A DNA stretch of 55,360 nt, taken from IMG/VR virus record IMGVR_UViG_3300042363_000446; one strand, given 5' to 3'. The stretch comes from an uncultured virus (IMG/VR IMGVR_UViG_3300042363_000446). Taxonomy: Duplodnaviria; Heunggongvirae; Uroviricota; Caudoviricetes. Shown one piece after another: positions 34,820 through 54,940 of the stretch (its first letter is position 1; every line of letters starts with the position of its first letter). The notes under the pieces were generated by a model. The model did no database searches, was not told where the DNA came from, and was given only the letters and a program-made list of their open reading frames with translations. The translations under genes and the position numbers were made by a program.

Positions 34820-37800
34820 ATGAGTCAACTAATTGATTTAGGAAAATTACGATTTTATTGGGCCGGTACATATAGCTCTGTAACTCAGTATGAATTAAAT
34901 GACGTAGTGCGCTACGGCGGTAATGTTTATGTTTATATAAATGTTGTAAAAACTAACGGCAACGAGCCTACTGATCCAGCCTACTGGGCTTTAATGGTAG
35001 AAGGTATTAACTTTCTTGGTACTTGGAACAGTGCAACACAATATTACATTGGCGATGCAGTTGCATATGGTTCTACTGTATATGTTGCTCTTGATGACAA
35101 CCTTAACAAACAGCCAGATTTGTTCCCGCTTGTTTGGTCTCAATTCGTTGAAGGCATTCAATTTGAGGGGGAATACAGCAGTGTCACAACTTATCAAGCA
35201 AATGACGTAGTTACTTACGGTCCCTCAACATATATTGCTAAAGGTACTACTAATAATAACTTACCAACAAACGCAACATATTGGGATCCTTTTGTTGAGG
35301 GTATTTCTCCTGAAGGCGTATATAATGGCGCTACAGCTTATGTCCCGGGCAATATTGTAGCATATGGTGCAAATCTTTATGTTGCTATAGCCAACACTAC
35401 TGGTAATATACCAACAAATGCAACTTATTGGACTCTATTTATAGAATCGTTTGATAACAGAGGTGCATGGGCAACCGCAACTCTTTATTATGTAAATGAT
35501 TTAGTACAGTTTGGTGCTAATAGCTATGCATGTGAAATACAAAACACTTCAGGGGTGTTTGCAACTGACTTAGCTGCCGGTAAATGGTCTTTGTTTGTTT
35601 CAGGTTTACGCAATCGCGGCCCCTGGACTACTGCAACATTATATCTTCCTTATGATATTGTTGTATACGGCGGAAATACTTACTCATGCTTAATACAAAA
35701 TAATTCAGGAGTGTTTGCAACTGATTTAGCTGCTGGTAAATGGGAAATATTTAACGGCGGTATTCGCTGGAGAAATGAATGGACTTCTGCTACTCCATAT
35801 TTGACTAATGATATTGTTCGCAATGTAGGATCATCTTATATTGCTACAGAAGATTTTACTTCTGGAGGTAACTTTAATACTGAATTTGTTGCTGGCAAAT
35901 GGGAGTTCTTTGCACAAGGTGCTGATGATGTACTTCCTATCATAGGTGTAGGTGAAGAAGGATATTCTTTAACAGTAAATGCTGATGGTGCCACAATTGA
36001 CTGGATCAATGCTACTGGATCACCTAATGTATTTTATGTTTCTCCGGACGGAAATGATAGTAACCCAGGTACTAGTTTAGCATTACCGTTTGCTAGTATA
36101 CAAGCTGCTGTTGCCGCTGTTACTGTTGGACAAATGTCTACAATCTTTGTCAAGACTGGTACATACCAAGAAGCTGCGCTTCCTATTGTTGTACCTCCTA
36201 ACACTGCTATTGTAGGTGATAATCAACGTACTGTTATTGTTACTCCAGCAGCTGGTTTAGCTGCTGACGGAGTTACACCAAACAATCAATCCATGATGTG
36301 GCAAATGTCTAATGCGTCTATATTAAACTGCATGACATTTACTGGTATGACCGGCTGGGTTGCTGGATCTACACCAGCTGACATTACTACTTCTGTTATT
36401 AAAGGGGTGTTTGTTGGATTTAATCCTGCGTCCCCGGTTACTAGTAAGTCACCTTACATTGTAGAATGCTCTGCAATATCCCCCGGCGGTGTTGGTGGTT
36501 ATGTAGACGGATCTGCTCATGCATCCGGTAACAAGTCAATGCTTTTCCATGCATTTACTATTATTAATGATTTGGGTATAGGATATTATGTTAGAAATCA
36601 AGGTAAAGCTGAAATAGTTTCTTGCTTTACATATTTTTGTTATTTTGGATACGCTACATCGGGCGGCGGAATTATACGAGCACTAAATGGTAATAACTCA
36701 TACGGTGTTTGGGGTGTCGCTGCTCGCGGGTTTGATACTACTGAAGTACCTCTGTTAGGTGCTCTTTATGGTACACAACTTACTGTTACTACTGACCCTA
36801 TCACTACAGGGTTCACGGCGGGATTAACAGCCACTGGAGTAACATCCGGCGCCACTGCAATTATCACTAATAGACAGGCTAACGCCGCTAAACTTTATAT
36901 AAAATATACAGGTGGATCACCTGTATTTGTGCAAGGAGAAGATATTACTGACGGAACAGGGAATACTCTAACTATTGTTAATAACGCTAGCGGTGTTACT
37001 GGTCAAAAAGGTGTATTACTCGTAATGAACGGTCTAAGTGCTGAACCATTACCGGGAGCAAGTATACAATTAACAGGCGATGCGTTTTCATATGTTATTC
37101 AGTCAGTATCCGGTACTTATGTTAATAGCTCAAGCATTATGATTATAGCATTAGCTCAAGAAAAACCAGATGCGTCTCCAGACGGCACAGTAGTAACAAT
37201 ACGCTATAAGTATTCACAGATCCGATTAACAGGACACGACTTTTTAAGCATAGGAACGGGCGGTATAGCTACTACTAACTATCCTAACACTCCACTTCAA
37301 CCGCCTGCCCAAGGTCAAGAGGTTGAAGAAATATTCCCGGGTCGTGTTTATTATGTATCTACAGACCAAGACGGTAACTTTAGAGTAGGTGAATACTTTA
37401 CAGTTGATCAGGGTACGGGTACAGCAACACTAAACGCAAATGCGTTCAATTTATCAGGATTAACATCGTTACAACTTGGTTCTATCGGTGCTCAGTTAGG
37501 GGAAACAATTAATGAGTTTTCTTCTGATGTTACTATGGGCGGCGCCTCCCCAACTAACTTAGCCGTTCCCACTGAGTTTGCGGTTTCAGGTTTCGTGCAA
37601 GCAGAAATAGCAACACAACAAGCATATGTTGATAACCGAGTTCCGCAAGCTATTCCAACGGCAGTAGGTGAAACTGGTAAGTACCTGCTTAGTAATGGTT
37701 CTATTCCTACATGGTCCGCTCTTAGTTTAAATGAGATTGTTGGAGCCAGTTCAACATTTGCAAGAACGGGTACGGCTGCTACATATAGTTATTCTATTTT

Positions 37801-39166
37801 TTCAAACACGATTCTAACTCCTGCGACTTGGTCGCTATCTGGCACAGTTCCTTCTGGTATATCAATAAACTCCTCTACTGGTGTACTGACTATAGGTTCA
37901 TCCGTATCAACCGGGTCATACTCGTATACTATTAATGCAGTTGGTGCTGAGAGTACTGGTACTCTCACTGAAACTATTTCAACAGTTGTCGATCCTGCTT
38001 ATCCAGTGTTTAGTTCAACTGTTTTGCCTTCAGCAGTTACTCCGTCTTCAGCTTTTACATCTACTGCTACACAAGCAACGGCATCATCCGGTACGGTAGT
38101 ACATACGCTCACTGGAGGAACTCTTCCATCATGGGCGTCACTAAGCTCTGCTGGAGTGCTTTCAGGAACTGCCCCGGCAAGTCCTACAGGATTTGCCGGT
38201 CCGTATACCTTTACAGTAACAGCTACTAACGGAATTTATGTTGCTGTTAAGGCCTTTACTTGGACTTATTACTTAGGGTTGATTCAAGGTCAAAACTTAT
38301 ATAACTCTTCTGGTACTTACTCATGGACAGCACCAACATCAGTTACTTCTGTTTCTGTAGTAGCTATAGGTGGCGGCGGAGCCGGCCAAGACAACTGGGC
38401 TAATCCAGCTGGCGGCGGAGCTGGATTAGGATGGAAAAACAATATTACAGTTGTTCCCGGTACTGCGTACACTGTAGTAGTTGGCGGAAGGGGAATTAGT
38501 ACTAGTAGTAGTGGCGCTACACAACTGAAAGGCGGTGACTCTTACTTTATCTCTTTAGCTACTGTTTCAGGATACGGTGGCGGTAACAATTCTGGCTCTG
38601 GTAGTTATGCTACCGGCCCTAATGTTCGAGGTAATACCGGCGGTGGTTATGTAGGTGACGGAGGCGGACCAGGTGGACAGGCTAACAGTTCCTGGTCAGG
38701 TGGCGGCGGCGCCGGGGGATATTCTGGAAGAGGCGGTGATGTTAATGAGACTTGGAATTACCCTACAGTTCGCGGCGCTTATGGCGGATCCTCTTATAGT
38801 TCTACTTACGGTACTGGCTCAGGCGGAGGAACAGGCGTTCTAGGCGAAACCAGTTATCCTAGTTCAGGTAATGCATTCTACAATCCGTTTACTGGCTACA
38901 CCAACGTAAGTAGTTACGGAAGCGGCGGCACGGGCTTTAGTGGTGGCGGTAACGGAATGTATGGTGAAAATCCATTCAGCGGCTCGGGACAAAGTTCAGA
39001 CAACATTCAAGGCGGAGATTACGGTGGTGGCGGTGGCGGTCCGGGCACTAGTTGGCCATCTTCATCTGGAAATGGCGGACTAGGCGCAGTACGTATTATA
39101 TGGGGATCCGGCCGAGCATTCCCTAGTACAAATACCGCAGACGTTACACCTAGCGGCCCGGCTTAA
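34820..39166 (+). CDS. Large multidomain tail fibre/receptor-binding protein
   Basis: N-terminal W/Y-rich repeats (Y..NDVVxYGG..Y, carbohydrate-binding-like), FYVSPDGNDSNPG...TIFVKTGTY beta-helix start, Ig-like LPSWASLSSAGVLSGT repeats, Gly-rich C-terminal domain ending GAVRIIWG. Confidence 0.75.
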   Translation: MSQLIDLGKLRFYWAGTYSSVTQYELNDVVRYGGNVYVYINVVKTNGNEPTDPAYWALMVEGINFLGTWNSATQYYIGDAVAYGSTVYVALDDNLNKQPDLFPLVWSQFVEGIQFEGEYSSVTTYQANDVVTYGPSTYIAKGTTNNNLPTNATYWDPFVEGISPEGVYNGATAYVPGNIVAYGANLYVAIANTTGNIPTNATYWTLFIESFDNRGAWATATLYYVNDLVQFGANSYACEIQNTSGVFATDLAAGKWSLFVSGLRNRGPWTTATLYLPYDIVVYGGNTYSCLIQNNSGVFATDLAAGKWEIFNGGIRWRNEWTSATPYLTNDIVRNVGSSYIATEDFTSGGNFNTEFVAGKWEFFAQGADDVLPIIGVGEEGYSLTVNADGATIDWINATGSPNVFYVSPDGNDSNPGTSLALPFASIQAAVAAVTVGQMSTIFVKTGTYQEAALPIVVPPNTAIVGDNQRTVIVTPAAGLAADGVTPNNQSMMWQMSNASILNCMTFTGMTGWVAGSTPADITTSVIKGVFVGFNPASPVTSKSPYIVECSAISPGGVGGYVDGSAHASGNKSMLFHAFTIINDLGIGYYVRNQGKAEIVSCFTYFCYFGYATSGGGIIRALNGNNSYGVWGVAARGFDTTEVPLLGALYGTQLTVTTDPITTGFTAGLTATGVTSGATAIITNRQANAAKLYIKYTGGSPVFVQGEDITDGTGNTLTIVNNASGVTGQKGVLLVMNGLSAEPLPGASIQLTGDAFSYVIQSVSGTYVNSSSIMIIALAQEKPDASPDGTVVTIRYKYSQIRLTGHDFLSIGTGGIATTNYPNTPLQPPAQGQEVEEIFPGRVYYVSTDQDGNFRVGEYFTVDQGTGTATLNANAFNLSGLTSLQLGSIGAQLGETINEFSSDVTMGGASPTNLAVPTEFAVSGFVQAEIATQQAYVDNRVPQAIPTAVGETGKYLLSNGSIPTWSALSLNEIVGASSTFARTGTAATYSYSIFSNTILTPATWSLSGTVPSGISINSSTGVLTIGSSVSTGSYSYTINAVGAESTGTLTETISTVVDPAYPVFSSTVLPSAVTPSSAFTSTATQATASSGTVVHTLTGGTLPSWASLSSAGVLSGTAPASPTGFAGPYTFTVTATNGIYVAVKAFTWTYYLGLIQGQNLYNSSGTYSWTAPTSVTSVSVVAIGGGGAGQDNWANPAGGGAGLGWKNNITVVPGTAYTVVVGGRGISTSSSGATQLKGGDSYFISLATVSGYGGGNNSGSGSYATGPNVRGNTGGGYVGDGGGPGGQANSSWSGGGGAGGYSGRGGDVNETWNYPTVRGAYGGSSYSSTYGTGSGGGTGVLGETSYPSSGNAFYNPFTGYTNVSSYGSGGTGFSGGGNGMYGENPFSGSGQSSDNIQGGDYGGGGGGPGTSWPSSSGNGGLGAVRIIWGSGRAFPSTNTADVTPSGPA

Positions 39167-41026: not shown

Positions 41027-41566
41027 ATGACGTTAAAAGAACAAACTAAAGATTTACACGAAATAGCAGAAAAAAATCCATTTGCTCAACGACTTCTTTC
41101 AGGTAATATATCTAACACCGAATATGCATGTTACTTAACTAACCTAGAACCTATTTATAATGCAATTGAAAATTTAGCAGAAAACAGTGGCATACTTATT
41201 GATGGCATAGTTCATATAAAGAGAACAGAACTAATTCGTGAAGATTTAGCAGAATTAAAGCAACTAGGAGCAAATCATTACGTAATATTTGAATCTACTT
41301 GCAGGTATGTTGATTATCTTAATCAACTTGATAAAGGTAAGATACTTGCTCACTTATATACCAGACACTTTGGTGATTTATACGGCGGGCAAATTTTAAA
41401 AACTAAAGTTCCGGGTAAGGGAAAAATGTACGAGTTTGTTGAGCGAAAAGCATTGATTGATAAAACACGTATGATGCTTAGCGATGATCTTGGACCCGAA
41501 GCACGAATAGCATTTCAATATGCGATATATCTTTTTGAGGAACTTACTAATGAGTTTAATATTTGA
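41027..41566 (+). CDS. hemO: Heme oxygenase
   Basis: LKEQTKDLHEIAE (proximal His) and AHLYTRHFGDLYGGQIL distal helix. Confidence 0.9.
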   Translation: MTLKEQTKDLHEIAEKNPFAQRLLSGNISNTEYACYLTNLEPIYNAIENLAENSGILIDGIVHIKRTELIREDLAELKQLGANHYVIFESTCRYVDYLNQLDKGKILAHLYTRHFGDLYGGQILKTKVPGKGKMYEFVERKALIDKTRMMLSDDLGPEARIAFQYAIYLFEELTNEFNI

Positions 41567-42218
41567 TAAATTGTTACAACACGCAAGTGAATTTCAAACT
41601 ATACTAAATACATTAGACCGATCTGACGAAGTACATGAGTTTCCTTGGGACAATTTGGTTTATACTTCTAAGTATATTAGGCGGGCCCACTTAGACATAG
41701 TAGACAAACGAGAAGATCGTAAATTGCTAATGATGCATTTATGTGTTTTTCCTCATACTGACTCAGATGCACCTATATACGGGTTTGATCTAATTGCGGG
41801 TCCTAATAAAGTTACAGGAGCATTTCATGACTTTAGTCCTTGTACTAATAACAACTCTTCTCATCCTCTTAGTGAATTATTTGCTGGAGAAGTAAAAAAA
41901 TATTCATGGTCAAAACAGCGTGAACTGCCTGAATGGGCTAAAAAAATATTTAGTCCTTGGATGGTTGCAGCAGGTAATATTAAAGATATTGACGAACTTT
42001 CTGAAGTACTTGAGCTATCTAAAAATAATTTGATTTCATATATTGAATGGATGAAAACTAACTATGCTACAAGTGATCAAGACTATACACAACAACAAAA
42101 CAATTATTGTATTAATCAAAAGCAAAATCCGCATACTCCTCGTGTAATGGAAAGTTTAGGTTATGATCCAGATACTGTCCAAAAGTTTATACAAAATTGC
42201 CTTTTTCCGGAAGTTTAA
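41550..42218 (+). CDS. pcyX: Ferredoxin-dependent bilin reductase, PcyX-type
   Basis: RRAHLDIVD...MMHLCVFP...PIYGFDLIAGPNKVTGAFHDFSP...QKQNPHTPRVM; likely start ATG 41550 after SD GAGG, overlapping hemO. Confidence 0.82.
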   Translation: MSLIFDKLLQHASEFQTILNTLDRSDEVHEFPWDNLVYTSKYIRRAHLDIVDKREDRKLLMMHLCVFPHTDSDAPIYGFDLIAGPNKVTGAFHDFSPCTNNNSSHPLSELFAGEVKKYSWSKQRELPEWAKKIFSPWMVAAGNIKDIDELSEVLELSKNNLISYIEWMKTNYATSDQDYTQQQNNYCINQKQNPHTPRVMESLGYDPDTVQKFIQNCLFPEV

Positions 42219-42275: not shown

Positions 42276-42719
42276 ATGAATGCTTTTCAACTTGAATTTT
42301 ACACTAGACTTAGAGCTTGGAACAACCTAAGAACTGACCTAATACATTTGCCACTGCACGAAAAATGTGTTGAAGTAGATAAGTTTTGGCAACAGTGTCC
42401 AGAAACAACACATTATTTACATCCAGCAGATATAAAATCATGGCCTGATCCATGGCAGTTATTAGATGATAATATGTATTGCCCATATGCTAGAGCATTG
42501 GGCATAATTTATACTTTAATTTTATTGGGAATAACCGACATTGACTTAGTAGATGCTATTGATTATAATAGTGTATCTGTGGTATTAGTCATGGTTGATA
42601 GCGCAAAATATGTACTTAATTACTGGCCCGGCACTGTAGTAAATAATAAACTCAGCGACTTCACTGTAGTTAGACACTATGACATAACACCCATCATTCA
42701 AAAAACAGGAACACTATGA
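42276..42719 (+). CDS. Hypothetical protein coupled to nrdA
   Basis: ATGA overlap with nrdA; GATAAGTA late-like element just upstream. Confidence 0.65.
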   Translation: MNAFQLEFYTRLRAWNNLRTDLIHLPLHEKCVEVDKFWQQCPETTHYLHPADIKSWPDPWQLLDDNMYCPYARALGIIYTLILLGITDIDLVDAIDYNSVSVVLVMVDSAKYVLNYWPGTVVNNKLSDFTVVRHYDITPIIQKTGTL

Positions 42720-45034
42720 AGATTTACGTTACTAAAAGATCAGGGAACACAGAGCCCTTGACCATTGAAAAATGGCAACAGCAAATAGCTACTATATGCA
42801 AAGGAACAGCAGATGTAAGTCAATCAATGATTGAAATCAAAGCGCAGCCGCACTTTTTTGATGGTATTACAACAAGCGACATTGATGAAATAACACTAAG
42901 AGCTATCGTAGACTTAATTGATGTAGAAAATAACCCAGACGTTGGGCACACAAACTATCAGTATGTAGCTGGTAAGCAACGTTTATCAATGCTAAGAAAA
43001 GATGTTTTTGGTCAATATCAACCTCCCCACCTTTTTGAAATTGTAAAAAAGAATGTAGCCACTGGGTTGTATACACCAGAATTATTAGAATGGTATACAG
43101 AAGATGATTGGAATAAGATGAATGATATTATTGATCATGAGAAAGATGAACAGTATTCTTATGCCGCCATTGAACAATTGATTGAAAAGTACTTAGTAAA
43201 AAACCGCGCTACAAAAGAAATATACGAAACACCTCAGATCAGATACATGATCGCAGCAGCTACAGTATTTCACAAAGAAGAACCCAACTCAGCAAGAATG
43301 CGATACATTCGTGAATACTATAACGCTTCTAGTGACGGCTTGTTTACACTAGCTACTCCAGTATTAGCAGGATTAGGCACTCCAACTAAGCAGTTTAGTA
43401 GTTGCGTATTGATTAAAACAGACGATGATCTTGACAGTATTTTTGCTTCTGGTGAAATGATGGCCAAGTATGCTAGCAAACGCGCAGGCATTGGGTTAGA
43501 AATTGGTAGACTTAGACCTTTAGGTTCTCCGATCAGAGGAGGTGAAGTCATGCACACTGGTATGATTCCTTTCTTGAAAAAATGGTTTGGTGATCTTAGA
43601 TCCTGTTCACAGGGAGGAATCAGAAATGCTTCCGCCACTATCACATATCCGATTTGGCACTATCAGTTTGACGATCTTATTGTACTGAAAAACAATCAAG
43701 GCACAGAAGAAACTCGCGTAAGACACATGGATTACAATGTAGTCTTATCAGCATTCTTTTGGAGACGATTTAAGAACAAAGAAAATATTACATTCTTTGA
43801 CCCCAACGAAGTACCTGATCTTTATGAAACTTTTTACAGCGATACTAAAAAGTTTGAAGAACTGTATGTAACGTATGAAAAGCGTAAAGACTTGCGTAAA
43901 AAAACAATGAATGCTGAAGATGTATTCAAAAGTGGTATTCTTAAAGAACGCACAGACACTGGTAGAATTTATTTAACCTTTATTGACAACGTACAAAATC
44001 AAGGACCGTTTGATACCAGTTATCATACGATTTATCAATCTAATCTTTGTCAAGAAATCTTGTTGCCTACTAAGTCATTTAAACGATTAGATGATGATAA
44101 GGGCCGAATCGCCTTATGCACCTTGGGCTCAATTAATTGGGGAGCATTTAGAAATCCAGAAGATATGCGCAGAGCATGTAGAATTCTTCAGCGTAGTTTA
44201 TGTAATATTCTTGACTATCAGGATTTCTTGTCTATTCAGTCTAAATTAAGCAATGATGAAATTCAACCTCTTGGTATTGGTGTTACTAATTTAGCATATT
44301 GGCACGCTAAACGTAGTTTTAATTATGGTGAACAAGACTCTTTACAAGAAGTTAAAAGCTGGATGGAACATCAAGCATTTTATCTAACTGAAGCAACTGT
44401 AGAACTTGCTAAAGAACGAGGCAAGTGTGTAGATTCAGATAAAACTTGGTATGGTCAAGGTATATTTCCCTGGGAACGTAGAGCTAAAGGTGTTAACGAA
44501 TTAGCAGACTTTACTCCCGAATTAGATTGGGAAGCACTTAGAGAACAAATGAAAACATATGGTGTTAGAAATGCTACTCTAATGGCAATTGCTCCAGTAG
44601 AAAGTTCGTCTGTTGTAATCAATAGTACTAATGGTATTGAAATGCCCATGAGTTTGATTACAGTAAAAGAATCTAAAGCAGGTAGTTTTATTCAAGTTGT
44701 TCCAGAATATCACAGATTGAAAAACAAGTATCAGTTAATGTGGGATCAAACTAATTGCGTTGACTACTTAAAAACAGCAGCAGTCTTACAAGCTTATGTG
44801 GATCAAAGCATAAGTACTAACACGTTTTATAACCCAGCACACTTTGCAGACAGAAAAGTACCTACAACAATGATTGCTGCAAACTTGATGTTGTTTTATT
44901 ACTGGGGCGGAAAGACACTTTATTACAGCTTGATTAATAAAGCAGGATCTAAAGCTGATGCAGAAGAATTACCCCAGATGTTAGAACCCGTTAATTACGA
45001 TGAAGAAAGTGATTGCGAATCATGCAAATTATAA
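42716..45034 (+). CDS. nrdA: Ribonucleotide reductase class Ia alpha subunit with ATP cone
   Basis: VTKRSG ATP cone, QFSSCVL, CSQGGIR, SNLCQEI, C-terminal CESCKL. Confidence 0.96.
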   Translation: MKIYVTKRSGNTEPLTIEKWQQQIATICKGTADVSQSMIEIKAQPHFFDGITTSDIDEITLRAIVDLIDVENNPDVGHTNYQYVAGKQRLSMLRKDVFGQYQPPHLFEIVKKNVATGLYTPELLEWYTEDDWNKMNDIIDHEKDEQYSYAAIEQLIEKYLVKNRATKEIYETPQIRYMIAAATVFHKEEPNSARMRYIREYYNASSDGLFTLATPVLAGLGTPTKQFSSCVLIKTDDDLDSIFASGEMMAKYASKRAGIGLEIGRLRPLGSPIRGGEVMHTGMIPFLKKWFGDLRSCSQGGIRNASATITYPIWHYQFDDLIVLKNNQGTEETRVRHMDYNVVLSAFFWRRFKNKENITFFDPNEVPDLYETFYSDTKKFEELYVTYEKRKDLRKKTMNAEDVFKSGILKERTDTGRIYLTFIDNVQNQGPFDTSYHTIYQSNLCQEILLPTKSFKRLDDDKGRIALCTLGSINWGAFRNPEDMRRACRILQRSLCNILDYQDFLSIQSKLSNDEIQPLGIGVTNLAYWHAKRSFNYGEQDSLQEVKSWMEHQAFYLTEATVELAKERGKCVDSDKTWYGQGIFPWERRAKGVNELADFTPELDWEALREQMKTYGVRNATLMAIAPVESSSVVINSTNGIEMPMSLITVKESKAGSFIQVVPEYHRLKNKYQLMWDQTNCVDYLKTAAVLQAYVDQSISTNTFYNPAHFADRKVPTTMIAANLMLFYYWGGKTLYYSLINKAGSKADAEELPQMLEPVNYDEESDCESCKL

Positions 45035-45044
45035 GGATTATTAA

Positions 45045-45248
45045 ATGAAACAGAAAATTTTAAAAGCACTAGAAGCACATTTTGTAGGACATATTGAAAA
45101 GCATAAAATGAATATAGAGATTATGTTAGCTAATCCTTTAGCTATTCACGATCACACTGATCTTATGAGTGCTATTGAAAAAGAAATTCAACAATTAGTA
45201 GAATATCAAGACAAACTTGACGCACTTAAACAACATTTCGGGGATTGA
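45045..45248 (+). CDS. Small hypothetical protein
   Basis: SD AAGGA; fills the nrdA-nrdB gap. Confidence 0.65.
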   Translation: MKQKILKALEAHFVGHIEKHKMNIEIMLANPLAIHDHTDLMSAIEKEIQQLVEYQDKLDALKQHFGD

Positions 45249-45251
45249 TAA

Positions 45252-46352
45252 ATGTCAAAACAACAGTATAACTTAGAAACAAAAACAGATTACTTGTCAA
45301 GAAAGATGTTTTTAGATCCCGCAGGTCCGGTAACTATTCAAAGATTTGAAGAATTTAAGTATCCCAAAATTGCCAAGCTGGAAGAAACTGCTAGAGGCTT
45401 CTTTTGGATCCCCGAAGAAGTTTCACTAACGAAAGATGCACAAGATTTCAAAGATGCCAGTGACGCGGTCAAACATATTTTTACTAGCAATGTTTTAAGA
45501 CAAACTGCACTTGATAGTTTACAAGGCAGAGGACCCAGTCAAATCTTTACTCCTGTTATTTCACTACCTGAACTAGAAGCATTAGTTTACAATTGGACTT
45601 TTTTTGAGACAAATATTCATAGCAGAAGTTATAGTCATATTATTCGTAATATTTACAATGTACCAAAAGACGTTTTTAACACTATTCATGACACGCAAGA
45701 AATTATTGATATGGCGTCAAGCGTAGGTCAATACTATGACAAGCTACATGTGCTTAACTGTAAAAAAGAGCTAGGTCACAAGATTGACGAAAAAGAACAT
45801 ATCAAAGCTATTTGGATGGCACTAAACGCCAGCTATGCATTAGAAGCATTTAGATTTATGGTATCTTTTGCTACTTCATTAGCAATGGTTGAGAACAAGA
45901 TTTTTATTGGTAATGGAAACATTATTAGCTTGATCTTACAAGATGAAATTTTACACAAAGATTGGACTGCTTATATCATTAACCAAGTAGTAAAAGAAGA
46001 TCCAAGATTTGCTCAAGCTAAACAAGAATGCGAACAAGAAGTTTATGCTCTTTATATGGATGTGATCAGAGAAGAAAAAGCATGGGCGGATTACTTGTTT
46101 AAGAAAGGCCCGGTTATTGGCCTCAATGCTAATATTTTAAAAGAGTTCGTAGATTATACTGCTATGAATGCGTTAAAAGAAATAGGTATTAAGTATCAGT
46201 CTAGTGCTCCTAAGTCTACTCCAATTCCTTGGTTTAATAAGCACTCGTCAACAAGTAACAAACAAACTGCACTACAAGAAAACGAAAGCACAAACTATGT
46301 TATAGGAATTATGTCTAATGACGTAAACTATGATGAATTACCCGATTTATAA
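45252..46352 (+). CDS. nrdB: Ribonucleotide reductase class Ia beta subunit
   Basis: FFWIPEEV, ETNIHSRSY, LEAFRFMVSF, DEILH, QENESTNY. Confidence 0.96.
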   Translation: MSKQQYNLETKTDYLSRKMFLDPAGPVTIQRFEEFKYPKIAKLEETARGFFWIPEEVSLTKDAQDFKDASDAVKHIFTSNVLRQTALDSLQGRGPSQIFTPVISLPELEALVYNWTFFETNIHSRSYSHIIRNIYNVPKDVFNTIHDTQEIIDMASSVGQYYDKLHVLNCKKELGHKIDEKEHIKAIWMALNASYALEAFRFMVSFATSLAMVENKIFIGNGNIISLILQDEILHKDWTAYIINQVVKEDPRFAQAKQECEQEVYALYMDVIREEKAWADYLFKKGPVIGLNANILKEFVDYTAMNALKEIGIKYQSSAPKSTPIPWFNKHSSTSNKQTALQENESTNYVIGIMSNDVNYDELPDL

Positions 46353-46364
46353 AAGGAAAATATA

Positions 46365-47294
46365 ATGAATAAAATGTTAGTTATGTTAGGCATCACGGCA
46401 GTATTAGTAGCCTGTCAGCCAAACTCGTTAGAACAAAGTACTGGTCCAAAAACTGAAACACCCACATTTGACTTAGATTACAGTCAGAGTTGCACTGATA
46501 AAGGTGAACCCACTATTAGTGGTAACTCTGTATTTTTTGGATCAGGAGATCAATGTCAAGCAGGTAGAGTAGTATCTACGCAAAGTTATGCTAATATTAC
46601 TGAATTTAGAGCCACTGTGGATTTGAGCAATCTGACAAATGATTATGTAAATGCGTCTGTATACTTTATACAAAATCCAAACGATCCACAAACACAGCCT
46701 AAAGCAACCGCAGATCATACTGGATCATATTGTGACGCTGGTACAGGTGCCGATTCGCATCCTGAACGAAATTGCAGAGAAATTGATCTTATGGAAACAA
46801 ACGGCAACAAGTTGTTTCAAACAACATTGCATTTAGGCAATGGTGGAAGTTCAGCTCCTGAGCGTTTTGAATATGCATATGCAGCGCCTGCGTTAACTGA
46901 TTCTAACTTTAATGCTGCAAATATGAAGAATAGTCCTACAGTAGGATTACATGATATTACTAGTATTGATATGTCTAAGCCATTTGATATTATTGCAACT
47001 TTTACATATGATATACCTAGAATGGTTATGACCTATGAACAAGGTTCTATTAGTATCGTAGTATATGATACCGGTGATGGCTATGGCGCTAATGGCAGTC
47101 AAACACCTGATCTGTCTGATTTAGTTACTACTATGCAAAACGGTTACTGGATTGAGATTTCGTTTTGGCAAGGGTACAGTCCAGAAGGCCCTGGTAATAG
47201 TCCATGGTGGAATGGTTCTGATGGCTGGGGTGCATTGTGTAATAACACTGGCTCATACTGGAACATACGCAATATCCAAGTAACAACACTATAA
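46365..47294 (+). CDS. Lipoprotein, clan GH-B glycoside hydrolase (GH7-like)
   Basis: Lipobox LVAC; VDLSNL...NASVYF, YCDA, CREIDLMETN, IDMSKPFDIIATF, GYWIEISFW, IRNIQ. Confidence 0.7.
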   Translation: MNKMLVMLGITAVLVACQPNSLEQSTGPKTETPTFDLDYSQSCTDKGEPTISGNSVFFGSGDQCQAGRVVSTQSYANITEFRATVDLSNLTNDYVNASVYFIQNPNDPQTQPKATADHTGSYCDAGTGADSHPERNCREIDLMETNGNKLFQTTLHLGNGGSSAPERFEYAYAAPALTDSNFNAANMKNSPTVGLHDITSIDMSKPFDIIATFTYDIPRMVMTYEQGSISIVVYDTGDGYGANGSQTPDLSDLVTTMQNGYWIEISFWQGYSPEGPGNSPWWNGSDGWGALCNNTGSYWNIRNIQVTTL

Positions 47295-47325
47295 ATACAA
47301 GTATCACACTTAACCGGAGATTTAA

Positions 47326-47874
47326 ATGAAAAAACAACTTATGATTTTATTTTTAATATTTTTTAGCGTAACTGCACAAGCCGCTAGATACGAAGTATGT
47401 ACAGGACAATTTGCGTTCTGCGGAGCTTCAGGTGCTACCCCGACAGGAAAAACTATTACAGTAAATACACCTACTGGTACGGCTGAGTTTAATGAAGCTG
47501 TAGCTCAATGTCCAGTAATGACCGGATCTGCTGTTGCAGATGTACTCGGTGGTAATATGCAGGGTTCATGCGAACCTTTAGAATCAGGACATGTATGGTC
47601 TTTGTTTGCCCCGCTCGGTCAAGTTCCCATGGCCCCTACTTGGAGTGTACAAACAGCTACTCCAAGATTATACATTAGTAGCAAAGAAGCAAATAGCAGT
47701 AATATGTTTTCAATGGATTGTGTTTTAGGTAAAGTAATCAATGGAGTTCAGATTGCCGATTGTTATGGTCCTATCAATGAAAATCTTAGAGGCGGGTCTA
47801 TTCCTGACGGTACTACTATGTTAACTGAAGCTCCTCTCGATGTGACATTCCCGGTATCTGGCCCGTTGCCTTAA
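47326..47874 (+). CDS. Secreted Cys-containing hypothetical protein
   Basis: Signal peptide ending AQA, six Cys; late promoter TATAAATA at ~47290. Confidence 0.65.
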   Translation: MKKQLMILFLIFFSVTAQAARYEVCTGQFAFCGASGATPTGKTITVNTPTGTAEFNEAVAQCPVMTGSAVADVLGGNMQGSCEPLESGHVWSLFAPLGQVPMAPTWSVQTATPRLYISSKEANSSNMFSMDCVLGKVINGVQIADCYGPINENLRGGSIPDGTTMLTEAPLDVTFPVSGPLP

Positions 47875-47884
47875 GGATATCATA

Positions 47885-48112
47885 ATGCAAAAAGCAATTA
47901 TATGGAGTAAGTCAAACTGTAGTTATTGCGATCAAGCAAAGCAGTTACTAACCATGAAGGGAATAGTATTTGAAGAAAGAAAGATAGGTGCTGAATGGAC
48001 TAAAGAACAACTGTTAGAAGCAGTTCCTACAGCAAGAGCAGTCCCACAGATTTTTCTAGACGATCAATATGTGGGCGGATTTACTGAACTAAGACAAAAA
48101 CTTAACAACTAA
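47885..48112 (+). CDS. Glutaredoxin
   Basis: CSYC active site, VPQIF, YVGGFTEL. Confidence 0.9.
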   Translation: MQKAIIWSKSNCSYCDQAKQLLTMKGIVFEERKIGAEWTKEQLLEAVPTARAVPQIFLDDQYVGGFTELRQKLNN

Positions 48113-52728: not shown

Positions 52729-53109
52729 ATGGCTTATTCTGAAAAAGTACTAGATCACTACAATAATCCACGTAATGTAGGAAAGTTTGATGATAATGAT
52801 CTAGATGTAGGTACGGGAATGGTCGGCGCCCCCGCTTGCGGAGATGTAATGCGCTTGCAGATAAAAGTAAACGAACAAGGAATAATAACAGATGCTAGAT
52901 TTAAAACGTACGGGTGCGGGTCGGCAATTGCTTCATCAAGTCTTCTTACAGAATGGGTCAAAGGGAAAACATTGGACGAAGCAGCAACAATCACAAACAC
53001 AAATATCGCACAAGAACTCGCACTCCCCCCAGTTAAAATTCACTGCTCAGTCCTCGCCGAAGACGCAATAAAAGCAGCAATCAAAGATATCAAGAATAAA
53101 AGAACATAA
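52729..53109 (+). CDS. iscU: Fe-S cluster scaffold IscU
   Basis: YSEKVLDHYNNPRNVG, GAPACGDVM, FKTYGCGSAIASSS, LPPVKIHCS. Confidence 0.96.
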   Translation: MAYSEKVLDHYNNPRNVGKFDDNDLDVGTGMVGAPACGDVMRLQIKVNEQGIITDARFKTYGCGSAIASSSLLTEWVKGKTLDEAATITNTNIAQELALPPVKIHCSVLAEDAIKAAIKDIKNKRT

Positions 53110-53113
53110 AATG

Positions 53114-53150
53114 GAATGGGCTAATAACCCATTCTTGTTGTTTTTCTTTT
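53114..53150 (+). terminator. Intrinsic terminator after iscU
   Basis: GAATGGG-CTAATAA-CCCATTC plus T-rich tract. Confidence 0.7.
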
Positions 53151-53248
53151 ATTTTGTTCGTAAAATGAAATATGTCAACCATGTTGACTAAATACTATTG
53201 ATGCCGGAATATTCTAGCACTACATTCACTATAGGAGGTGAACATTAA

Positions 53249-54187
53249 TTGAAAAAATTACTTAGTATCGCACTATTGGCACTAACTGTGCCCGCATTTG
53301 CAGGAGTTGATCCTCTAACCGAAGTTAAACCCGTTAGCTCAGAATGGTTCTATAATGGTTCAGAACCTGATTATGTTGTAGAAGTACCAAGCTTTACTGT
53401 CCCAGCAACAGGCGTAATTGACTATATTGATTCAGTTATACCTCTTGAGTTCGGTGAAGATCGTTGGGTGAAGGCAGTTCAATTTATACCCGGAGACAAG
53501 CGTGTTCTCCATCATCTATTATCTTATGTAGTAGCTGACGGACAAAACGCTTCTGATGGTATGATTGATGAAACTGTTAACGATAACCGTCGTGAATTTC
53601 TAGAAGGGTATGCACCCGGCAAAGAATACGCAACTGAGTTCCCAGCTAACACTGGTGTGTTTATGCCTGACGGCTCTGCACTGCGTATGAGCATCCACTA
53701 CACTTCTTTCGGTCAGGAAACTGCTGATAGTACTCGTGTAGGCCTATGGTTTGCTGATAAAGATGCTGAGCCAGAATATGAGTTTCATACTTACTCAGTG
53801 TCTACCCCAATGAACCAAATTCATATTCCTGCAGGACAAATGGAATATGCTTCTAATGCAACACACGTATTTGAAGACGAAATTACTTTGCACGGTTTCC
53901 GTGCTCACATGCATTATCGTGGCAAATCAATGGCTGCAAGAGTAATTTACCCTGACAATACAGTTGAAGACATTATAAATGTTCCTGATTACAACTTTGC
54001 ATGGCAACCTACTTATCGTATGGCAGAACCAATGGTTATTCCAGCTGGTTCACGTGTGGTAGTTGAAGGTCTATTTGATAATTCGCAATACAACGTAGGT
54101 AATCCAGATCCAAATGTTGATGCGATTGGTGGTTTACAATCATGGGAAGAAATGTTTATTGGATATTTCTCTTACACTACCAATTAA
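53249..54187 (+). CDS. Exported copper type II (PHM/DBH-like) monooxygenase
   Basis: TTG start after SD AGGAGG; signal peptide ending AFA; CuH-like VLHH + IHY, CuM-like HMH + EEM; YNFAWQPTY. Confidence 0.78.
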   Translation: MKKLLSIALLALTVPAFAGVDPLTEVKPVSSEWFYNGSEPDYVVEVPSFTVPATGVIDYIDSVIPLEFGEDRWVKAVQFIPGDKRVLHHLLSYVVADGQNASDGMIDETVNDNRREFLEGYAPGKEYATEFPANTGVFMPDGSALRMSIHYTSFGQETADSTRVGLWFADKDAEPEYEFHTYSVSTPMNQIHIPAGQMEYASNATHVFEDEITLHGFRAHMHYRGKSMAARVIYPDNTVEDIINVPDYNFAWQPTYRMAEPMVIPAGSRVVVEGLFDNSQYNVGNPDPNVDAIGGLQSWEEMFIGYFSYTTN

Positions 54188-54208
54188 AACGTAATTTTAA
54201 ATAACCCT

Positions 54209-54234
54209 AGCGGTAGAAAATCTGCCGCTTTTTT
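54209..54234 (+). terminator. Intrinsic terminator
   Basis: AGCGGTAG-AAAAT-CTGCCGCT followed by T run. Confidence 0.75.
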
Positions 54235-54250
54235 AATATGAGAAAAATAA

Positions 54251-54940
54251 ATGAAATTTTTAGTAACAATGTTTATGCTTTTATTGTCATCAATGTCTTA
54301 TGCGGGTGACTTTTCGCTTATAGATCAAAACGGTGTTCAGCATCAAATGAGTTGGTATGCAAGAACACCTGATTCAAAAATCGTAGTAGTTAGTTACGAT
54401 GGTAATTTGGAATTAAAAGAAAAAGTAGAAAAATTGCAAAGAGAAAATATGCAATCATATTACTTTTTTATCTATCCAGGAAATAATAGAGAGTTAGAAT
54501 CATCACTGATTCCTATTCTTATGGACGATACAAAACTTGTAACACAAGATTTAGGTTTGTATGCGCCGGGTGTTGCAGTAGAATTAAATACGAAAAATCT
54601 TTCAATAGATGCACAATATTTAATTCATGGATATACGTATGAATTTCCTGAATTTGTAAGAGAACAAACAACCCCCACGTATGTTAATGATGTTGCTCCT
54701 ATTATAGCAAAGAATTGTGCTGCTTGTCACAGAGAAGGTGGTATAGCTCCTTTTGCTTTTAATAGTAGTCAAATGCTTGTTGGATGGGCACCAATGGTTC
54801 GTGAAGTATTGCTTACTAAGCGTATGCCTCCTGGACAAATTGATCCGTATGTGGGTGAATTTAAAAACAGTATGACATTAACAATTGAAGAAACACAAAC
54901 GCTAGTAGATTGGATTGATGCTGGTACGCCAGTAAACTAA
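54251..54940 (+). CDS. Exported protein: degenerate redoxin-like domain plus c-type cytochrome
   Basis: Signal peptide; DFSLIDQNGVQH redoxin start; VAPIIAKNCAACHREGGIAPF (CxxCH) and RMPP distal Met. Confidence 0.78.
   Translation: MKFLVTMFMLLLSSMSYAGDFSLIDQNGVQHQMSWYARTPDSKIVVVSYDGNLELKEKVEKLQRENMQSYYFFIYPGNNRELESSLIPILMDDTKLVTQDLGLYAPGVAVELNTKNLSIDAQYLIHGYTYEFPEFVREQTTPTYVNDVAPIIAKNCAACHREGGIAPFAFNSSQMLVGWAPMVREVLLTKRMPPGQIDPYVGEFKNSMTLTIEETQTLVDWIDAGTPVN

Follow-up and report, generated by a model that had tools for sequence, protein, structure and literature searches.

A GH7-like gene in a phage ribonucleotide reductase operon

We analyzed a 55,360-nucleotide stretch of DNA from an uncultured member of Caudoviricetes (IMG/VR IMGVR_UViG_3300042363_000446), hereafter the window. 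It is part of a T4-like jumbo phage that encodes a portal protein, a prohead protease, gp23, a late sigma factor, tail fibres, and nrdA/nrdB, and a 267-kb IMG/VR record was identical to it over two compared stretches. On the forward strand, PHROG matches delineated nrdA, a 67-amino acid ORF, and nrdB (42716–46352), the ribonucleotide reductase operon that hosts the insertion of a GH7-like lipoprotein gene encoding the 309-amino acid protein P0001 (46365–47294). This gene starts 12 bases past the nrdB stop codon, with an AAGGA ribosome-binding site upstream, and adjoins nrd, away from the tail genes. It is followed on the same strand by a gene for a 182-amino acid exported Cys-rich protein of no known family (47326–47874) and by a glutaredoxin gene (47885–48112; Pfam PF00462) that closes the operon. 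The GC3 of the P0001 gene (0.26) agrees with that of neighboring genes (0.22–0.31).

The ORF call was backed by IMG/VR copies and by a confident structural model. As far as it was covered, the protein was identical in five IMG/VR contigs, one of them partial. Among 14 phage copies, Nei-Gojobori dN/dS values for the printed pairs ranged from 0.06 to 0.25, with dS partly saturated. The P0001 ORF is real and under purifying selection.

A preliminary description of the sequence had proposed that this lipoprotein carries the ordered motif set of GH7 cellulases. All of the blocks it quoted were found in P0001 in the given order, namely the lipobox LVAC, EFRATVDLSNL, NASVYF, TGSYCDAG, CREIDLMETN, TTLH, IDMSKPFDIIATF, MTYEQGS, MQNGYWIEISFW, and WNIRNIQ, and the placement of CREIDLMETN at 46773–46802 was exact. 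The pattern [YF]CD..C-x-E-x-D-x-x-E appeared in 0 of 20,000 shuffles of the protein, and P0001 alone among the 51 ORFs of the window carried the ordered motif set. The motif order is not due to chance. Moreover, YCD..CxExDxxExN-x9-H was intact in 79 of 80 viral loci, which represent 50 distinct C-terminal sequences; the remaining locus was truncated.

We examined the flanks of these 80 loci, up to 6 kb, for recurring neighbors. nrdB was present in 58/80, the glutaredoxin gene in 55/80, and nrdA in 52/80. The 182-amino acid protein was a frequent neighbor, occurring in 15/80 GH7-like loci. We rejected it as an obligate partner because it mostly occurs without the GH7-like gene, which was found in only 5/80 of its own loci, all five from this phage. 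It gave a poor structural model (pLDDT 58) with no fold match, and it is widespread in viral contigs, with at least 422 matches and, in the ESM Atlas, three viral clusters and one bacterial cluster. A conserved link to a TonB-dependent receptor was likewise rejected, as the receptor occurred in 1 of the 10 phage records tested, most of which are incomplete. Between these two candidates, no conserved partner gene was found. The nrdA-nrdB-grx region is itself an insertion hotspot, with split nrdA genes and extra ORFs of 200–540 amino acids (L006, L011, L012, L019, L020, L038, L054, and others). An octamer, TATAAATA, which we take to be the T4 late-promoter consensus, overlaps the P0001 stop codon (47290–47297), 29 bases ahead of the 182-amino acid gene, and is one of three on the forward strand of the window.

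Sequence comparison with GH7 and GH16

Searched as a single sequence, P0001 matched no Pfam, PHROG, or NCBIfam family, and pairwise comparison with the PDB gave no match to any solved GH7 or to any other solved glycosidase of the clan. The Pfam Glyco_hydro_7 model (PF00840; cut-off 27 bits), which the preliminary description had put forward as a check, matched neither P0001 nor 62 close homologues; the only scoring protein was a distant relative, P0127, at 25.3 bits, under the cut-off. The GH16 models PF00722 and PF26113 also matched neither P0001 nor its homologues. In five genome records, a PF00840 search gave no match anywhere and, with the controls likewise silent, was uninformative.

We then collected relatives of P0001, obtaining 77 by word-indexed search and 45 among clusters at 50%, of which one was spurious. 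A 5,241-amino acid repeat protein (P0119) was dropped as a non-member, and a Treponema match (L086) was dropped as a true GH16. A profile of the 62 close homologues (alignment A1) gave a single PDB match at E ≤ 10, the GH7 structure 8POF (E = 2.9e-8). With a profile of 40 diverse relatives (A2), 10 GH7 sequences (1.5e-16 to 7e-5, 8POF being the best at 1.5e-16) preceded the first GH16 (0.0095). In hhalign comparisons, the phage-bacterial core profile gave 97% for GH7 (182 columns) and 76% for GH16 (57 columns), whereas the GH7 and GH16 profiles matched each other at 6%.

For domain-level comparison, we assembled 33 near-full canonical GH7 domains, found in 80 metagenome loci by a YCDAQ-type pattern, and 39 GH16 domains, bacterial only, from planctomycete-order genomes and one Treponema. 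The YCDAQ pattern biases the GH7 set and makes its YCD counts circular, while the PDB searches are not affected. The core profile scored 33/33 GH7 domains (median 6.2, maximum 24 bits) and 34/39 GH16 domains (median 0, maximum 16 bits). In the reverse test, 42/46 family domains scored slightly higher on the in-house GH16 profile than on the GH7 profile, all weakly (≤26 bits). We read this bias as a diverse, short GH16 profile catching the catalytic strand and a narrow, insertion-rich GH7 profile penalizing a compact protein; it still counts against simple GH7 membership. The motif CD..CxExDxxE was present in 46/46 family domains and 0/39 GH16 domains. YCD was invariant in A1 and A2 and occurred in 1/39 GH16 domains; the preliminary description had called the YCDA block GH7-like rather than GH16-like.

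Predicted fold and active site

We used AlphaFold2 to predict the structure of P0001. The model (mean pLDDT 89, pTM 0.86) shows a jelly roll, and VIA alignment to the GH7 8POF placed the predicted clan GH-B catalytic domain at residues 28–309 (46446–47291, forward strand), with Z 17.5–17.6, rmsd 3.4, 236 aligned residues, and 21% identity. In a wide VIA-align search, 8POF (17.5), 6SU8 (16.7), and 2RFW (15.2) scored above the GH16 entries VvEG16 (14.3) and 5NBO (14.0), and the top 28 rows were all GH7 or GH16 entries; the best GH16 Z across both runs was 14.3–14.8. In Foldseek, the first 46 ranks were all GH7 entries, and GH16 entered at rank 47. An ESM Atlas structure search gave TM 0.64–0.65 for GH7 and 0.53–0.55 for GH16, the Atlas feature search also favored GH7, as a lead only, and a BFVD fold search gave only weak lectin- or GH16-like matches. 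In this comparison by AlphaFold and Foldseek, which the preliminary description had proposed, the predicted model of P0001 is closest in fold to GH7.

We mapped P0001 onto TrCel7A, with numbering counted from the 1CEL chain and residue roles and the active-site list taken from passages and Table 1 of PMC8987026. All positions below are on the forward strand. Alignment rows equate R68, N96, and Y100 (46566–46664) with R107, N141, and Y145 of the minus subsites; they are kept in 34, 33, and 34 of 35 family rows and in 23/23 GH7 rows, and GH16 mostly has Trp at the N96 and Y100 positions. The segment Y122-C123-D124-A-G126 (46728–46742) corresponds to Y171-C172-D173-S-Q175, with Gln replaced by Gly. 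In the catalytic strand C137-R-E139-I-D141-L-M-E144-T-N146 (46773–46802), C137, E139, D141, and E144 are invariant in 40/40 sequences, and the E-x-D-x-x-E motif is intact as first described; the predicted roles are nucleophile for E139 (E212), assisting residue for D141 (D214), and acid/base for E144 (E217). T154-x-H156 (46824–46832) aligns with T226 and H228, the histidine being present in 35/35 family, 23/23 GH7, and 20/27 GH16 rows. S266-x-W268 (47160–47168) aligns with S365 and W367, kept in 34 and 32 of 35 family rows and 23/23 GH7 rows; GH16 has Asn and Ala. Nine residues of P0001 (R68, N96, Y122, C123, C137, N146, Q226, G260, and S266) each occur in 23/23 GH7 rows and are mostly absent from GH16.

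The GH7 active-site set Y145, D173, T226, H228, and W367 thus has its counterparts in Y100, D124, T154, H156, and W268. Q175 and W216 are not kept, with G126 and M143 in their place; across the family, the W216 position is Leu or Met. A candidate for the W376 platform, Y271, is aromatic in 31/31 sequences, but the alignment crosses a gap there and the equivalence is uncertain. The family has aromatics of its own at W281/W282. Between E139 and H156, P0001 has one residue more than GH7, and this extra residue, together with the absent Q175 and W216 equivalents, suggests that the specificity of P0001 may differ from that of GH7. In two AT-rich homologues, P0120 and P0122, the YCD block and catalytic glutamates are lost, and these may be non-catalytic derivatives.

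The protein is compact, with fewer cysteines than canonical GH7, as had been noted at the outset. The distance from C123 to E139 is 16 residues and that from D38 to R68 is 30, compared with 34–43 and 59–85 in canonical GH7, and the tunnel-forming loops of GH7 cellobiohydrolases are missing. These much shorter loops indicate an open cleft.

The best match by both profile and fold, 8POF, is RsSymEG1, a small GH7 endoglucanase from a termite-gut protist. It is similar in size (321 amino acids vs. 309) and shares colinear YCDA, CxExDxxExN, H, D-x-S-K-P-F, and SxW elements. RsSymEG1 has YCDAQ, whereas P0001 has YCDAG and no Trp in the catalytic strand; P0001 also differs in its prokaryotic lipobox and phage context, and the two show no pairwise match. 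With canonical GH7 (PF00840; Cel7A cellobiohydrolases and Cel7B endoglucanases), P0001 shares the predicted fold (Z 15–17), the catalytic triad, and equivalents of R107, N141, Y145, Y171, C172, D173, C210, T226, H228, S365, and W367. However, it is about 60–130 residues shorter than fungal and animal GH7 structures, lacks the tunnel loops, has far fewer cysteines, has lost Q175 and W216, falls below Pfam detection, and sits on a separate tree branch. GH16 enzymes (laminarinases, lichenases, EG16/XTH, and agarases) share the clan GH-B jelly roll (Z 12–14), a compact open cleft, and, in bulged subfamilies, the E-x-D-x-x-E motif; they are frequent in bacteria and have also been reported from viral structure libraries. 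Yet they have no YCD, no Cys ahead of the nucleophile strand, and no S-x-W, are separated by a long branch, and have W-P-A-F-W where the P0001 family has N-A-S-x-Y.

Overall, the idea of a GH7 relative rather than a GH16 held in the PDB profile searches, profile-profile comparison, predicted fold, and trees, but did not extend to formal membership: PF00840 and pairwise searches against solved GH7 were silent, and single sequences favored the GH16 profile. We consider it highly likely that the P0001 family is closer to GH7 than to GH16. In view of the Pfam result and the two active-site residues, it is best filed as a GH7-like sister lineage and not as a formal GH7 member.

Export signal and cysteines

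P0001 begins with a signal peptide (46365–46412, forward strand) whose lipobox, L13-V14-A15-C16, follows a hydrophobic stretch. This is the sequence signature of a bacterial lipoprotein, and lipidation itself is predicted. Consistent with this, LPAM_1 gave weak, sub-cut-off matches in 33/62 homologues, and the lipobox pattern was present in 69/75 full-length viral copies, one of them probably false. Of the six viral copies without it, four still start with a hydrophobic segment and two do not. The proposed envelope anchor is thus found in P0001 and most phage copies but is not universal across the family. The residue at lipobox position +2 is Gln, not Asp, and under the Lol rule this residue is the basis on which we predict sorting to the outer membrane. 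Giant-virus-type copies (L087:6001–6921; P0099 and P0100) have a common basic N-terminal extension in place of a signal peptide.

P0001 contains six cysteines, including that of the lipobox. C181 and C286, found in most relatives, were lost jointly in 5/5 cases in A1, P0001 among them, and in 6/7 cases in A2, as two cysteines joined by a disulfide in an exported protein would be. In P0001, we infer a C123-C137 disulfide, presumably equivalent to the 172–210 disulfide of TrCel7A.

Distribution of relatives

In IMG/VR, 116 stretches encode a relative of P0001, of which 80 were kept for analysis. Most of these loci belong to related T4-like phages, in which the gene occupies the nrd operon, either between nrdA and nrdB or behind nrdB, and others are in unrelated jumbo phages; L073–L080 are presumably Bacteroidota phages, an impression from gene style. 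One relative comes from a giant-virus contig, where it neighbors genes for a eukaryote-type RNA polymerase subunit and an eIF4A-like helicase. Neither annotated GenBank phages nor plasmids contained a match to P0001.

GTDB genomes yielded five member loci, four in Halioglobus/Haliea MAGs and one in a planctomycete; a sixth match was GH16. The Halioglobus/Haliea copies have a lipobox and are surrounded by ordinary chromosomal genes, and the planctomycete copy carries dockerin-like repeats. Members are rare, occurring in 5/301 Haliea-family genomes and 1/301 genomes of the planctomycete's order. One relative, P0123, is a fusion with FG-GAP repeats. Among the members from eukaryotes are a dinoflagellate and a thraustochytrid cluster. 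A second compact group (P0112, P0166, P0121, P0126, and P0127), partly from protist transcriptomes, bridges the phage family and canonical GH7; P0126 was sought in viral contigs and not found. The family is accordingly prokaryotic and viral as first suggested, through jumbo phages, Halieaceae, and a planctomycete, but it is not confined to phages and has protist members too.

Phylogeny and origin

We built two trees, both without 8POF and without eukaryotic GH16, and with GH7 rows picked by the YCDAQ motif. Tree 1 (MAFFT alignment, LG+G4, 155 columns) comprised 85 rows: 35 from the family, 23 of the 33 GH7, and 27 of the 39 GH16. GH16 (support 100) and canonical GH7 (99) each fell on one side of a branch, with the family outside both, and the median path from P0001 was 3.4 to GH7 and 4.9 to GH16. 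Tree 2, with 46 of these rows under the LG+C20 mixture model and rooted on GH16, again separated GH16 (100/99) and canonical GH7 (100/99). The phage/bacterial/giant-virus clade branched first with weak support (88/42), and the compact protist/AT-rich group (P0112, P0166, P0121, and P0126) joined canonical GH7 (95/83). The clan GH-B phylogeny proposed in the preliminary description therefore places the family outside GH16, here a bacterial sample, and on the GH7 side. A better fit nested within GH16 was sought in a constrained tree and not found: forcing the core together with four laminarinase-type GH16 was weakly rejected (p-AU 0.04). Forcing the family together with two deep GH7 rows was not rejected (p-AU 0.545, the constrained tree scoring higher, and 0.108).

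These results suggest that P0001 probably belongs to an undescribed and compact group of clan GH-B glycoside hydrolases, sister or stem to canonical GH7, that is found mainly in jumbo phages and some bacteria. More tentatively, the lineage may be a surviving prokaryotic/viral GH7 stem, an active small endo-beta-glucanase between GH16 and GH7. If so, the GH7 active site would have been born in bacteria or their viruses and passed through compact protist forms, with the loops of fungal cellobiohydrolases added later.

A eukaryotic source seems less likely than such a stem. Here the family would be a reduced GH7, derived from a compact protist endoglucanase such as RsSymEG1 and carried by giant viruses and phages into bacteria. 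The p-AU values of 0.545 and 0.108 for a family inside GH7, the nearest solved structure being a small protist GH7 (8POF), the patchy bacterial members (5/301 and 1/301 genomes), and the existence of protist and giant-virus members all fit this origin. However, canonical GH7 formed one clade without the family in both free trees (99; 100/99), and the family is nearer to GH16 than GH7 is, both by profile and by tree distance (4.6 vs. 5.2), which fits a stem better than a shortened descendant. A divergent GH16 subfamily with convergence around E-x-D-x-x-E is very improbable and largely refuted: 42/46 single sequences prefer the GH16 profile, the size is GH16-like, and PMC6827312 describes the bulged motif as common in GH16, but the match to GH16 is confined to 57 columns around the catalytic strand, CD..CxExDxxE is in 0/39 GH16 versus 46/46 family domains, GH16 is cut off at 100% support, and nesting of the family with the four laminarinase-type GH16 gave p-AU 0.04.

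The chief cellulases of fungi and of industry are GH7 enzymes. P0001 may indicate how the ancestor of the industrial ones looked, and may also be a GH7-type scaffold able to fold in bacteria. A small, bacterially secreted relative with a GH7 active site would make the GH16-to-GH7 transition testable by assay and structure. P0001 is also a new carbohydrate-active phage gene candidate missed by Pfam, PHROGs, and NCBIfam alike. PMC7443863 and PMC3490864 state that bacteria lack GH7, and within clan GH-B, PMC6827312 and PMC12323267 use GH7 and GH16 each as the outgroup of the other. The literature searched, which left CAZy and most subscription journals outside, contained no account of a GH7 from prokaryotes or viruses; virome CAZyme tables could list such proteins.

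Predicted function

P0001 is predicted to work like a small GH7 endoglucanase, and is probably a retaining, open-cleft endo-beta-glycanase in the envelope of the infected cell. By analogy with T4, its operon position suggests that it would be made during infection together with nrdA, nrdB, and grx. Because of the lipobox and disulfides, it is expected to be lipidated at Cys16 and sent to the outer membrane, folding with disulfides in the periplasm. Because the chemistry of clan GH-B is established, P0001 would cut a beta-linked glucan-type polymer mid-chain by retaining double displacement, with E139 as nucleophile and E144 as acid/base, acting non-processively in its open cleft. It is very likely to be catalytically active. 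The substrate is reasonably predicted to be a beta-glucan. Most likely, the enzyme would attack a beta-1,4 or mixed-linkage glucan of the infected cell's envelope or surrounding matrix and thereby loosen this layer. That it acts on the host's own envelope or matrix, and not on outside food, is an evenly balanced prediction.

If it acted on outside food, P0001 would be the product of an auxiliary metabolic gene, degrading algal or plant beta-glucan beyond the cell and feeding the infected host. We regard this role as doubtful. The cellular relatives with a name, Halioglobus, Haliea, a planctomycete, and marine protists, all come from aquatic groups; planctomycete-type copies bear dockerin-like anchors, and a matching phage record contains a TonB-dependent receptor. 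Yet that receptor is siderophore-like and was present in only one of the 10 records, and no sugar-uptake gene was recognised among the recurring neighbors.

Less probable still, the GH-B machinery may have an envelope glycan other than a glucan as its substrate, or work as a transglycosylase, and remodel or mask the host surface against superinfection. The changes of Q175 to Gly and W216 to Leu/Met, the family-specific W281/W282, the GT1, GT2, and nucleotide-sugar epimerase genes in the phage record, and the transglycosidases described among GH16 in PMC6827312 are compatible with it. Nevertheless, conservation extends to the other residues that line the −2 to +1 subsites of GH7, and a common polymer would account for the spread of the family across unrelated phage lineages, bacteria, a giant virus, and protists more readily than the capsule of a single host. 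We favor an envelope-directed beta-glucanase, with the other two roles as live rivals.

Other features of the phage genome

Several further genes in the phage genome were of note. A tail fibre with CBM5/12 and Ig-like matches (34820–39166) places a carbohydrate-binding module in the receptor-binding apparatus. A heme oxygenase and a ferredoxin-dependent bilin reductase (pcyX-like) form a pair at 41027–42218, and the phage's other genes suggest a non-cyanobacterial host. At 52729–54940, an IscU/NifU scaffold, a copper type II monooxygenase C-terminal-like protein, and a possible c-type cytochrome lie in a row; the phage IscU shares about 80% identity with Pseudomonadota proteins, which hints weakly at the host. 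In the matching phage record (G002), a forward-strand island from L259:13868 to L260:3488 encodes DUF1552 (HXXSHH), the siderophore-type TonB-dependent receptor, GT2, and a metallophosphoesterase. Among the 117 of 202 ORFs scanned in this record (L253–L262), host-like genes included SOD, ClpP, ClpX-like and ClpB-like ATPases, DnaJ, and UvdE, as well as IMPDH/GMP reductase, GTP cyclohydrolase I, a carbamoyltransferase, a sugar aminotransferase, and epimerases.
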